A stretch of 64,000 nt of DNA from Pecten maximus (lineage: Eukaryota), in contig NC_047027.1 of assembly GCF_902652985.1 (NCBI RefSeq), positions 18,972,001 through 19,036,000 of the forward strand, in the 5' to 3' direction. The notes below the pieces were generated by a model. The model had not been told where the DNA came from, did no database searches, and worked only from the letters and a program-made list of their open reading frames with translations. The position numbers and the translations under genes are program-made. Positions 52,801-58,800 of this stretch are shown here, piece by piece (position 1 is the first letter of the stretch; the number at the start of each line of letters is the position of its first letter).

Positions 52801-55800
52801 ATAGAATCTAACATGTGTCTGTGAGGTGGACAGCCATGATTCAACCTAAGTGAAAGTTTCGCTGAGTATCACTGTCCACTAAATAAACCCATGTTTGATT
52901 ATGTATTCTCATATACTTATAAATACATCATTTGCTATTGTAAAAAAAAATCAAATTTGTTCTTCAAATTAACCATGATCTTCATGTTCCAAAAGGGGGA
53001 TTCGCCATACACGACAAATGTATGACTTGATAGAAACAATACACCGACATCATGGAAACAATTAATTTTAATGACGTCATATTCTGTGTAGCTGCCTTTC
53101 TTCACCCTGGTAATGACATATTTGTCTTCGTGCCTGCTACCTGTAACTGTACTATAATGTAAAATAATGATCTATTTAGATTATGATCTAGTATAGGACA
53201 CTGGGCTACGTAATTGAAGGTCCCTAATTCCTGTCCTGACACGGGATACTTTACTCGATTTTTTTCCGGTCATTTAATGATCAGCTGTAAATGAGTACCA
53301 GGCAAAGCAATGCAAGTATGTTTTGTGTAATAGTTAACGCCCAAATGTCAGCTTGAAACAGATATGAAGATTGTTTCTAAAGCCCTAATATCGATGGATA
53401 CTCAGCTAATTGGTGAGAGTGTCCAGTAAGGTTTTAAATGAACTTTCCAAAACAATTGCTTACTGACATCCAGTATTGGTTTCGAGATGTTTGGTGTTGT
53501 GTTTTATGCAGATCTTGTCTCACCTTTAGGCAAACCACCTGGTGGGCCTGAAGAGAACCTACCTCAAGCTGTCCTTTCTGTCGGTAGAGGATTTAACCAA
53601 GGTCAAACGGGAAATTAATCCCGCTGTCACCAAGAACAAGGAGCGTGAGAAGTCGAGTGAAGCCTACACAACAATGTTCTCTAGGTACAGTATTTTTCCT
53701 GATCTATTGGGGAAATTGGCATATATGTGAAATTGTGAATTTTTTTGTACAGTGTAAGCAAGAAATTAGGAAAATTGTTTGTGGTTTGTATTGGAAATTG
53801 GGAAAAAAATAAGCAAATATTTCCAAGAATCACATTTTCAGCGATTCAGTCCTATGCAAAAACTGTTTTGGGATTATATGTATGTATTAGGAAAACACAC
53901 TTTATTATCAAGAAATGTAGTGCCAGATTTTGAACAAGGGTGCAAAAAATATTTTCAAACCACTTGCCCCATGTAAGTAAAGGTCAGAAATCCACTTGGC
54001 TAAGTTAAATATAATTGCAATTCATAATTGAAAGAAAACAGTATATAATGTAATTATAATTGCTGGTATATTTTGTTTTGTTTTCAGTTTATTTATTTCT
54101 TTTTTTTTCCGCTAATCCCTGAATTCTGGTCCAGATTTTCAGTCAAGTTCTAGCCATCCTGGAAGATGTTCTTCTATTTAAACATTTGTAACATTGAGAC
54201 AAGGTTATGATCAAATTATGTTTCCCGGGAATATTTTCCTTTTAGTGGGAAAAATCATTGTTTCTTTGCAGTTACTTGACCGGTGAAGACAGCAAGACCA
54301 ATTCCAAAAAGATGGTTGACCAGATGGACAACTTAATGGACATCAGGTAAAATGGGTAAATCAGATAGTGGACATCTGACAGGTAAAATTGGTAAATCAG
54401 GTAGTTGACATCTGACAGGTAAAATTGGTAAATCAGATAGTTGACATCTGACAGGTAAAATTGGTAAATCAGATAGTTGACATCTGACAGGTAAAATTGG
54501 TTTTAGAAATCAGGTAGTGGACATCTGACAGGTAAAATTGGTAAATCAGATAGTTTACATCTGACAGGTAAAATTGGTTTAGAAATCAGGTAGTGGACAT
54601 CTGACAGGTAAAATTGGTAAATCAGATAGTGGACATCTGACAGGTAAAATTGGTAAATCAGGTAGTGGACATCTGACAGGTAAAATTGGTAAATCAGGTA
54701 GTGGACATCTGACAGGTAAAATTGGTTTTAGAAATAAGGTAGTTGACATCTGACCGGTAAAATTGGTTTAGAAATCAGATAGTTGACATCTGACAGGTAA
54801 AATTGGTTTTAGAAATCAGATAGTGGACATCTGACAGGTAAAATTGGTTTTAGAAATCAGATAGTGGACATCTGACAGGTAAAATTGGTAAATCAGGTAG
54901 TGGACATCTGACAGGTAAAATTGGTTTAGAAATAAGGTAGTTGACATCTGACCGGTAAAATTGGTTTAGAAATCAGGTAGTGGACATCTGACAGGTAAAA
55001 TTGGTAAATCAGATAGTGGACATCTGACAGGTAAAATTGGTTTTAGAAATAAGGTAGTTGACATCTGACAGGTAAAATTGGTTTAGAAATCAGGTAGTGG
55101 ACATCTGACAGGTAAAATTGGTAAATCAGATAGTGGACATCTGACAGGTAAAATTGGTAAATCAGGTAGTGGACATCTGACAGGTAAAATTGGTAAATCA
55201 GGTAGTGGACATCTGACAGGTAAAATTGGTTTTAGAAATAAGGTAGTTGACATCTGACCGGTAAAATTGGTTTCGAAATCAGATAGTTGACATCTGACAG
55301 GTAAAATTGGTTTTAGAAATCAGATAGTGGACATCTGACAGGTAAAATTGGTAAATCAGGTAGTGGACATCTGACAGGTAAAATTGGTTTAGAAATAAGG
55401 TAGTTGACATCTGACCGGTAAAATTGGTTTAGAAATCAGGTAGTGGACATCTGACAGGTAAAATTGGTAAATCAGATAGTGGACATCTGACAGGTAAAAT
55501 TGGTTTTAGAAATAAGGTAGTTGACATCTGACCGGTAAAATTGGTTTAGAAATCAGATAGTTGACATCTGACAGGTAAAATTGGTTTTAGAAATCAGATA
55601 GTGGACATCTGACAGGTGAAATTGGTTTTAGAAATCAGATAGTGGACATCTGACAGGTAAAATTGGTTTTAGAAATCAGATAGTGGACATCTGACAGGTA
55701 AAATTGGTTTTAGAAATCAGATAGTTGACATCTGACAGGTAAAATTGGTTTTAGAAATCAGATAGTTGACATCTGACAGGTAAAATTGGTAAATCAGATA

Positions 55801-58800
55801 GTGGACATCTGACAGGTAAAATTGGTAAATCAGGTAGTGGACATCTGACAGGTAAAATTGGTAAATCAGGTAGTGGACATCTGACAGGTAAAATTGGTTT
55901 TAGAAATAAGGTAGTTGACATCTGACCGGTAAAATTGGTTTAGAAATCAGATAGTTGACATCTGACAGGTAAAATTGGTTTTAGAAATCAGATAGTGGAC
56001 ATCTGACAGGTAAAATTGGTTTTAGAAATCAGATAGTGGACATCTGACAGGTAAAATTGGTAAATCAGGTAGTGGACATCTGACAGGTAAAATTGGTTTA
56101 GAAATAAGGTAGTTGACATCTGACCGGTAAAATTGGTTTAGAAATCAGGTAGTGGACATCTGACAGGTAAAATTGGTAAATCAGATAGTGGACATCTGAC
56201 AGGTAAAATTGGTTTTAGAAATAAGGTAGTTGACATCTGACAGGTAAAATTGGTTTAGAAATCAGGTAGTGGACATCTGACAGGTAAAATTGGTAAATCA
56301 GATAGTGGACATCTGACAGGTAAAATTGGTAAATCAGGTAGTGGACATCTGACAGGTAAAATTGGTAAATCAGGTAGTGGACATCTGACAGGTAAAATTG
56401 GTTTTAGAAATAAGGTAGTTGACATCTGACCGGTAAAATTGGTTTCGAAATCAGATAGTTGACATCTGACAGGTAAAATTGGTTTTAGAAATCAGATAGT
56501 GGACATCTGACAGGTAAAATTGGTAAATCAGGTAGTGGACATCTGACAGGTAAAATTGGTTTAGAAATAAGGTAGTTGACATCTGACCGGTAAAATTGGT
56601 TTAGAAATCAGGTAGTGGACATCTGACAGGTAAAATTGGTAAATCAGATAGTGGACATCTGACAGGTAAAATTGGTTTTAGAAATAAGGTAGTTGACATC
56701 TGACCGGTAAAATTGGTTTAGAAATCAGATAGTTGACATCTGACAGGTAAAATTGGTTTTAGAAATCAGATAGTGGACATCTGACAGGTGAAATTGGTTT
56801 TAGAAATCAGATAGTGGACATCTGACAGGTAAAATTGGTTTTAGAAATCAGATAGTGGACATCTGACAGGTAAAATTGGTTTTAGAAATCAGATAGTTGA
56901 CATCTGACAGGTAAAATTGGTTTTAGAAATCAGATAGTTGACATCTGACAGGTAAAATTGGTAAATCAGATAGTGGACATCTGACAGGTAAAATTGGTTT
57001 AGAAATTTACAGGTACTACCATAGATGCTTAAGTGGCTGTACATCTGGTCCGACATATATTGCCATTTGGCCACAAATATATCAAACTTTACAGTAAATA
57101 GTGGCTTATAATTCAGTACATAAGTATTGGTGTAACTAGAGAGAAGTTGATCATCTGACCTTGTTTTATGTTATACCAGAGAATACGATGTTCCATACCA
57201 TGTGAGAGTGTCCATAGATCTCAAAATAAATGTAGGTCACTGGTACTCGGTCCGGGGGCGTGGCTCCTTACCTGTAGAGATCCTACCTCGGGAAGACCTC
57301 GTAGACAGACCGGTATGTATACGCATTAAGATCTTGATCAATTGAAGTCTTTAAATAGTCTTAACTTTCTTTTTAGAAAAATTACCATATTTATCTTCCA
57401 AAATTTGTACTCAAGGGCTTTGACTAGGGGATGCTTGGACTTACCTAGGGCCTCTCAGAGGTCAATATTTGGCCTAGATTCTTCTCAATTTCAATCTTAG
57501 ATTTCTCAAATAGATTTGCTTTCCCAAGCAGATTATTAACTTTCACTTTCTATCAAATGAAAGTTCAAGCACTGAATTTTTCAAGCATAATTGTACCATT
57601 TGACAATTAGGTCAAACAATTTGTGATTGTCTTTGCTTAATACCTGCTTTGTACAACCACCCACAAAAAATTTCCAAAAAATGATGAAAAATGCTACAAA
57701 ATTTTCAAGTTTTTGGGTATTGGGCAAATTTTCAAAAAATGCTGCAAGTTCCTGAGATGGACCTATAAGAGAACAGTGAAATAGCTCTTAATTGCAGTTT
57801 AACTGAACTACAATACAGTTGATTAAAACTCTCCATTACTCAGAAGAATAAACTAAACATTCTTTAAATTACCAGACAGAAAAAAAATATAATCATTTGT
57901 TTACTAGGCTTTACTTAGACCATTTGAAATTTTCATTGTTTGTGTTAACTTGAGCTTTTCGGAGGGTGGTAATAAAAAAATGTGTTAATTTGAGCTTTTA
58001 GGAGGGTGGTAATAGTGTAAAGCATGTAACGATTGGAAGCTGGTAATAGTGTAAAGTGTGTAACTTTTGTAGGGTGGTAATAGTGTAAAGCATGTAACGA
58101 TTGGAAGCTGGTAATAGTGTAAAGTGTGTAACTTTTGTAGGGTGGTAATAGTGTAAAGTATATAACTTTTGTAGGGTGGTAATAGTGTAAAGTGTGTAAT
58201 TTTTGGAGGGTGGTAATAGTGTAAAGTGTGTAACTTTTGTAGGGTGGTAATAGTGTAATGCATGTAACGTTTGGAAGGTGGTAATAGTGTAATGTATGTA
58301 ACTTTTGGAGGGTGGTAATAGTGTAAAGTGTGTAACTTTTGTTGGGTGGTAATAGTGTAAAGTATGTAATATTTGGAGGGTGGTAATAGTGTAAAGTATG
58401 TAACTTTTGGAGGGTGGTAATAGTGTAAAGTATGTAATATTTGGAGGGTGGTAATAGTGTAAAGTGTGTAACTTTTGTAGGGTTGTAATAGTGTAAAGTA
58501 TGTAACTTTTGTAGTGTGGTAATAGTGTAAAGTGTGTAACTTTTGTAGGGTGGTAATAGTGTAAAGTATGTAACTTTTGTAGGGTGGTAATAGTGTAAAG
58601 TGTGTAATTTTTAGCCCACCATCATCAGATGGTGGGCTATTCAAATCGCCCTGCGTCCGTGGTCCGTGGTCCGTCCGTCCCTCCGTCCGTCCGTCCCTCC
58701 GTCCCTCCGTCCGTCCGTCCGTCCCTCCGTCCGTAAACAATTCTTGTTATCGCTATTTCTCAGAAAGTACTGAAGGGATCTTTCTCAAATTTCATATGTA

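Follow-up and report, generated by a model that had tools for sequence, protein, structure and literature searches.

We analysed a stretch of 64,000 nucleotides (nt) from the genome of the scallop Pecten maximus (NC_047027.1, here contig C13, positions 18,972,001 to 19,036,000; hereafter the window), in which a 2.7-kb tandem array directly follows the end of a coding exon of POLE, a gene for an essential replicative polymerase. The array is a length-variable minisatellite that probably arose by tandem duplication across the end of this exon and its 5' splice site (donor), and its many extra donors are likely silent, with the first donor being chosen. An earlier reading of the same DNA (the original prediction) had likewise placed the origin of the array at the exon/intron junction, and in addition had suggested that it could act as a decoy field for U1, as a rheostat working through nonsense-mediated decay (NMD), or as a set of recursive splice sites. 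The elements concerned are the following:

53530..53684, forward strand: POLE coding exon preceding the focal exon (spliced homologue alignment; joined to 54272 in a contig of RNA run X7).
54272..54346, forward strand: 75-nt POLE coding exon, the sixth in the gene model (homologue alignment; the X7 contig leaves it at 54346).
54337..57013, forward strand: junction-spanning minisatellite, a junction unit followed by 68 units with lengths of 36, 40 or 41 bp.
54344..54352, forward strand: true 5' splice site CAG/GTAAAA, phase 2, the sole donor in spliced contigs (a slash marks the splice boundary).
54596..55767, forward strand: first copy of a 1172-bp block of 30 units (at an offset of 1172, 1231 bases are identical).
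55768..56939, forward strand: second copy of this block, without differences (same evidence).
57014..57179, forward strand: unique 3' part of the intron including the true acceptor, nearly identical on contig C38.
57180..57312, forward strand: next POLE exon, start of the exonuclease domain region (PDB/PF03104 match; present in spliced contigs of 4/4 runs).

Tandem Repeats Finder (TRF) described the array as having a period of 41, 68.1 copies and 90% matches. It begins within the 75-nt exon, whose last 10 nt form the exon-derived part of the repeat unit, and it occupies 2.67 kb of the 2833-nt intron. The exon/intron junction reads ATGGACATCAG/GTAAAATGG at 54346/54347. In the window allele the true donor reads GTAAAATGG and the unit copies read GTAAAATTG. 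When the 68 units behind the junction were sorted by donor, 56 carried CAG/GTAAAAT, identical to the true donor from -3 to +7, 10 carried CCG/GTAAAAT and two carried CAG/GTGAAAT, in agreement with the original prediction of about 65–70 units that are mostly copies of the true donor, with a minority of CCG/GT and CAG/GTG. The motif CTGAC stands immediately before the donor site in all 68 units, and the true junction is without the 4-nt TGAC insert that the array units carry. The units also contain weaker second donor-like sites (CAG/GTAGT in 21, AAG/GTAGT in 12 and TTG/GTAAAT in 25). A coding repeat was ruled out, since every reading frame of the array is interrupted throughout (85–115 stops each).

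With regard to the gene, the downstream exon matches residues 223–267 of human POLE PDB chains (E 2e-15) and PF03104, and nine predicted POLE exons, from 47241 to 63535, join in one open frame.

Comparison of the exon with the repeat unit supports the view that the minisatellite grew out of the POLE junction. From end to end the junction unit aligns with the other units, save for the 4-nt insert that the exon lacks. The exon's TGGACATC is present in the unit, and an equal match was obtained for 0.07% of 20,000 random 11-mers; the exon-derived portion of the unit amounts to 8 + 3 nt, split by the insert. The exon end encodes a conserved D-I-R, with D/G-I/M/L-R at this place in six of the seven homologues examined, which indicates that the exon is the older sequence. 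Searches with two unit patterns matched only the POLE locus on C13 and contig C38 (with this search tool, absence is not proof of rarity), and a dispersed satellite was rejected on this ground. The presence of TGGACATC in the unit, the conserved exon end and the locus-specificity all favour the origin that had been proposed. As to the course of events, a short junction-spanning piece would have been duplicated and would have gained the 4-nt insert, which completes a 6-bp inverted repeat (TCAGAT and ATCTGA) that is paired in predicted folds. We infer that this inverted repeat favoured expansion; later growth may have proceeded by slippage and unequal exchange, the last step being the doubling of the 30-unit block.

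The array is a variable number tandem repeat (VNTR), with 68 units on one version and 16 on the other. The shorter version lies on C38, a contig of 35.5 kb that is collinear with the POLE region of the window at 91–97% identity except for a 17-kb block. C38 is likely an allele and not a paralogue: a search with the POLE exon gave matches on C13 and C38 alone, and in X5, another individual, the window letters are replaced by variants of C38. In this sample one contig that links exon and array has 18 listed differences, 13 being common to C38, and at most of the C38-type variant sites no window-type letter is present. The 16 units of C38 have the same 3' end as the 68 units of the window, and their donors read CAG/GTAA (10 units), CAG/GTAC (2), CCA/GT (2), CCG/GT (1) and CAT/GT (1). 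The intron measures 2.8 kb in the window versus 0.83 kb on C38. Only one complete internal unit type is common to the two versions, which points to fast turnover. Sample X4 holds both short and long unit types. The long and short versions seem to coexist in one animal, providing a natural test of "first donor wins" in an invertebrate and at this copy number, with exon SNPs such as 54287 A/G to mark the alleles. The 17-kb block (C38, approximately 2140–18965) is placed in a POLE intron, is absent from C13 and contains several tandem repeats. Its open frames of 827 and 632 residues (L014 4931–7411 and 7861–9756, minus strand) have no Pfam match, and the block is probably a polymorphic mobile element.

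The count of 68 may itself be too high. The two copies of the 1172-bp block are 100% identical over 1231 bases and differ at no position, while neighbouring sub-blocks differ from each other, so the doubling may reflect either a very recent unequal exchange or an assembly duplication. In the latter case the true allele would have about 38 units, a correction that is compatible with a junction-born, length-variable minisatellite. We regard such an inflated count as unlikely, though far from negligible: a very recent exchange would look alike, and the array is multi-copy in two other individuals, the summed contig depth of the array bin being 1362 in X4 and 700 in X5 compared to roughly 26–56 on the unique flanks (these depths are not copy numbers).

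To follow donor use we relied on runs of assembled contigs, which were taken as RNA-derived because the contigs skip introns. In the X7 contig the preceding intron is skipped and the focal exon is left at 54346 for the exon at 57180 (depth 3.9). X6, X8, X9 and X10 each provided one contig over 57177–57313 at depth 5–22, and in all four the loose 5' end corresponds to the true exon end and the loose 3' end to the exon at 62460; in the same four runs the last two array units have no contig cover. Run X12, from another organism, covers 54000–54187 only and reaches neither the exon nor the array. Joints from array positions to the 57180 acceptor, which the original prediction had named as its check, were not observed in any of the five runs with spliced contigs, all of which use the 54346 donor at depths of 3.9–22, where contigs drop rare forms. 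The spliced contigs thus demonstrate the dominant route only, from the first donor to the 57180 acceptor, since contigs lose rare forms, NMD depletes array products and recursive removal would yield the same mRNA.

The choice of the first donor is not explained by its strength. For comparison, spliced homologue alignments gave the positions of 33 POLE introns (the first intron and three stretches with poor alignment were excluded, and some margins are small). In a 9-mer matrix derived from the gene, the true donor and its 56 copies each score 9.0 bits, more than 85% of the 33 mapped donors. Structural masking of the copies was considered and left no sign, with a fold z of -1.76 and an empty centroid. 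As the copies equal the true donor and are accessible, sequence strength cannot account for the choice, whereas position can: the first copies would give exons of 111, 147, 183 and 219 nt, and an exon of at most 300 nt would result from only six of the 68. Read-through of the true donor gives AGG TAA, with the TAA at 54348–54350, just as had been predicted; however, an in-frame stop is no special design, because TAA or TGA stands at the same place in 6/10 phase-2 donors mapped in POLE. To judge from the aligned units, the donor copies show no sign of selection. Six of 14 substitution alleles fall within the 9 donor columns of 38 (p 0.11), which is more than expected and not fewer, and the invariance of GT in 84/84 units is what 14 changes over 38 columns would lead one to expect (p 1.0). 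Selection keeping the donors was therefore rejected; some of the 14 substitutions co-occur and may be one event.

Arrays of this kind are known from human and amphioxus genes, and the POLE array is one more, large example. In the available text of PMC1557585, the VNTR of human F7 intron 7 begins with a 37-bp unit that spans the junction. In all it has 5–9 identical donors, of which splicing takes only the first; mutation of that donor activates the following one, and 1–12 units leave the choice unaltered. As in F7, the first unit of the POLE array straddles the exon/intron boundary and is followed by identical donors downstream, the unit number is polymorphic, the units are of similar length (37 versus 36–41 bp) and only the first donor is seen in mRNA (here in low-depth contigs). 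It differs in unit number (5–9 versus 68 and 16), in having 10 exon-derived bases plus a 4-nt insert, and in that its copies are mostly AG/GT whereas those of F7 are TGG/GT. Moreover, the function of the F7 copies was assayed by minigenes, and the POLE array is known from sequence and RNA contigs. The same source lists further junction-spanning minisatellites that repeat the donor, as the POLE array does: 6-16 with 25 pseudo-sites and CBS intron 13 with 15–20 units, in which two proximal copies are also used, and LMNB2 (10–15 x 100 bp) and PDGF intron 4 (16–18 x 81 bp), in which only the true site is used. In contrast to 6-16 and CBS, no use of proximal copies was seen in the POLE contigs, at low depth. 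In amphioxus, the available part of PMC3087553 describes "mirages" at Adh3, BflGb6 and BflGb9, which are tandem duplications of exon-intron boundaries with haplotypes of 6 versus 3 units, concerted evolution within a haplotype and undisturbed normal splicing. The POLE array is likewise a boundary-derived tandem array of an invertebrate whose unit number differs between versions, but it is larger, contains a perfect higher-order doubling and lies in an essential replication gene. A boundary-spanning first unit, a repeated donor, a locus-specific variable length and use of the most upstream donor in the main mRNA (at low depth) place the POLE array with the F7 and mirage type. POLE also shows that a gene can be essential and still tolerate 56 exact copies of a donor. 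The literature search found no publication combining scallop, minisatellite, intron, tandem repeat and splicing; POLE was not searched by name.

By analogy with F7, the downstream donors would be silent through commitment of the first donor by exon definition. Exon definition across the 75-nt exon would commit the first donor, in line with the F7 rule of the "most upstream site". With the first donor committed, the downstream copies should cost little and hence drift, and if a copy were used on occasion, the product would contain the TAA of the read-through and be removed by NMD.

However, it should be underlined that several observations weigh against this explanation. The RNA evidence consists of contigs at low depth, which lose rare variants; they were placed on two flanking stretches with about two units each, so that joints between internal units lie outside their view. 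The figures of X8 and X9 coincide, and the two probably represent a single data set; X6 and X7 come from the same study, which leaves about three independent sets. In the matrix the copies are as good as the true donor, and at +8 they gain one further match when counted against the generally known U1 motif. Folding also leaves them accessible, with an unpaired probability of 0.41–0.77 (first 22 of 68) versus 0.49 for the true donor. The ACAG/G sites of the array score as mid-range acceptors, above the true acceptor. Finally, the first-site rule is known from mammalian cells, another animal group, and proximal copies are used in two of the five human precedents, 6-16 and CBS (PMC1557585).

An alternative is that the first few copies take a measurable share of splicing, that NMD degrades the products, and that long alleles lower POLE output. 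We consider this improbable. It would fit the strength and accessibility of the copies, their common position behind an in-frame TAA, which would make the products scarce in steady-state RNA, and the roughly four-fold variation in unit number; proximal copies are used in human 6-16 and CBS (PMC1557585), and in the available part of PMC10078293 the length of human tandem repeats termed spl-TRs can shift splicing. Against it, none of the five runs with spliced contigs has an array-derived joint, and the donor positions are not conserved. Added distal units should matter little when only the nearest six copies give an exon of at most 300 nt, and F7 constructs with 1–12 units were spliced alike (PMC1557585). 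A literature search on VNTRs and NMD, judged by its listing, yielded nothing specific.

It is very doubtful that the intron is removed stepwise, the true donor splicing to an array ACAG/GT as acceptor and thereby regenerating CAG/GTAAAAT, with normal mRNA as the outcome. The juxtaposition required, CAG/GT, is present in 58 of the 68 units, and the array sites reach 5.8–8.1 bits as acceptors (45th–70th percentile of 33) compared to 4.6 for the true acceptor, although the acceptor matrix is crude (32 training sites). Mature contigs would look the same as under one-step splicing. Tandem dual-specific AGGT sites are used in human UBC, where, in the available text of PMC10809524, 228-nt in-frame coding repeats have tandem AGGT sites shown to act as both donor and acceptor. 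The POLE array shares with UBC the tandem arrangement of unit-borne AG/GT, but its units are non-coding, 36–41 nt long and carry predicted sites only. The surroundings of the sites speak against acceptor use. They have 6–8 pyrimidines among 17 positions against a median of 11 for real acceptors (8 or fewer in 2/33), so the shortage of pyrimidines does weaken the recursive option, as the original prediction had itself remarked. The AG-free zone is 12 nt at 58/58 sites versus a real median of 28 (12 or less in 2/33). The same prediction had called the CTGAC before each donor site branch-point-like; the motif is indeed in every unit, but it cannot serve its own AG, since its A lies only 4 nt away and typical distances from branch point to AG are 19–37 nt (available part of PMC10078293). 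The CTGAC of the previous unit is 40–45 nt away, with two or three AGs in between. Known recursive sites lie mostly in very long introns, and an intron of 2.8 kb (0.83 kb on C38) does not need stepwise removal. As to the recursive-splicing literature, nothing on such an arrangement appears in the available part of PMC13196383.

An extended form, in which the 58 CAG/GT sites act as a dual-specific hand-over and the number of units (16 to 68) sets the delay of POLE pre-mRNA or its loss through NMD, appears more doubtful still, and UBC is its best precedent; if true, splicing of an essential replicative polymerase would be set by a dial that segregates naturally. That a satellite or mobile repeat of other origin inserted next to the exon and matches the junction only by coincidence is scarcely credible, for although the exon-derived part is short (8 + 3 nt, broken by the insert), the junction unit follows the other units along its whole length, the 8-nt exon match would occur by chance at a rate of 0.0007 and the two unit patterns match solely this locus on C13 and C38 (absence not being proof). 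The U1 decoy field, the NMD rheostat and the recursive sites are thus not supported, considering that the contigs contain the first donor only, that donor positions are not conserved beyond chance and that 1–12 units were without effect in F7. The minisatellite would gain importance only through use of array donors or recursive cuts, or if POLE output tracks unit number. The locus also calls for care in gene prediction, and its length may serve as a marker.

The surroundings of the array are themselves rich in repeats. Tandem repeats with a period of at least 10 make up 18,010 of 60,000 bp across the POLE span (30%), four of 66 mapped POLE splice sites have a tandem repeat within 15 nt, and two further arrays of the gene copy acceptor sequence. 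Given this repeat content and the other splice-site arrays, a junction-born array is an expected by-product in this genome.

Both acceptor arrays lie downstream of the window in the same gene. At C13:19054450–19054830 an acceptor-spanning array with a unit of about 90 bp repeats the 3' splice site and the start of the exon four times upstream, the copies reading AAAG or TTAG compared to TCAG at the true site. At C13:19061706–19062087 an array of ten 39-bp units reiterates the pyrimidine tract and stops at a POLE acceptor, its copies ending in CATAG, ATCAG or CCAG versus the true CACAG. Between them, at C13:19054905–19055283, a 50–55-bp x 7 array starts 9 nt after a POLE donor, and the donor is not copied. 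Within the window, the next POLE intron holds a 34-bp array (57995–62334) that is interrupted by 9.5 copies of a 155-bp repeat at 58744–60210; the C38 alignment breaks at this array, which suggests a length difference. Elsewhere in the window, a 44-bp x 4.6 repeat at 18462–18661 has a strong donor-like CTG/GTAAGT in three units with no exon linked to it, a 46-bp minisatellite at 38383–39151 carries AAG/GTAGCA, and a 33-bp minisatellite is found at 22360–22782. Finally, the 15/30-bp repeat at 14988–15146 would read on the minus strand as a peptide rich in Lys, Ala and Pro, which may resemble linker-histone-like tails.

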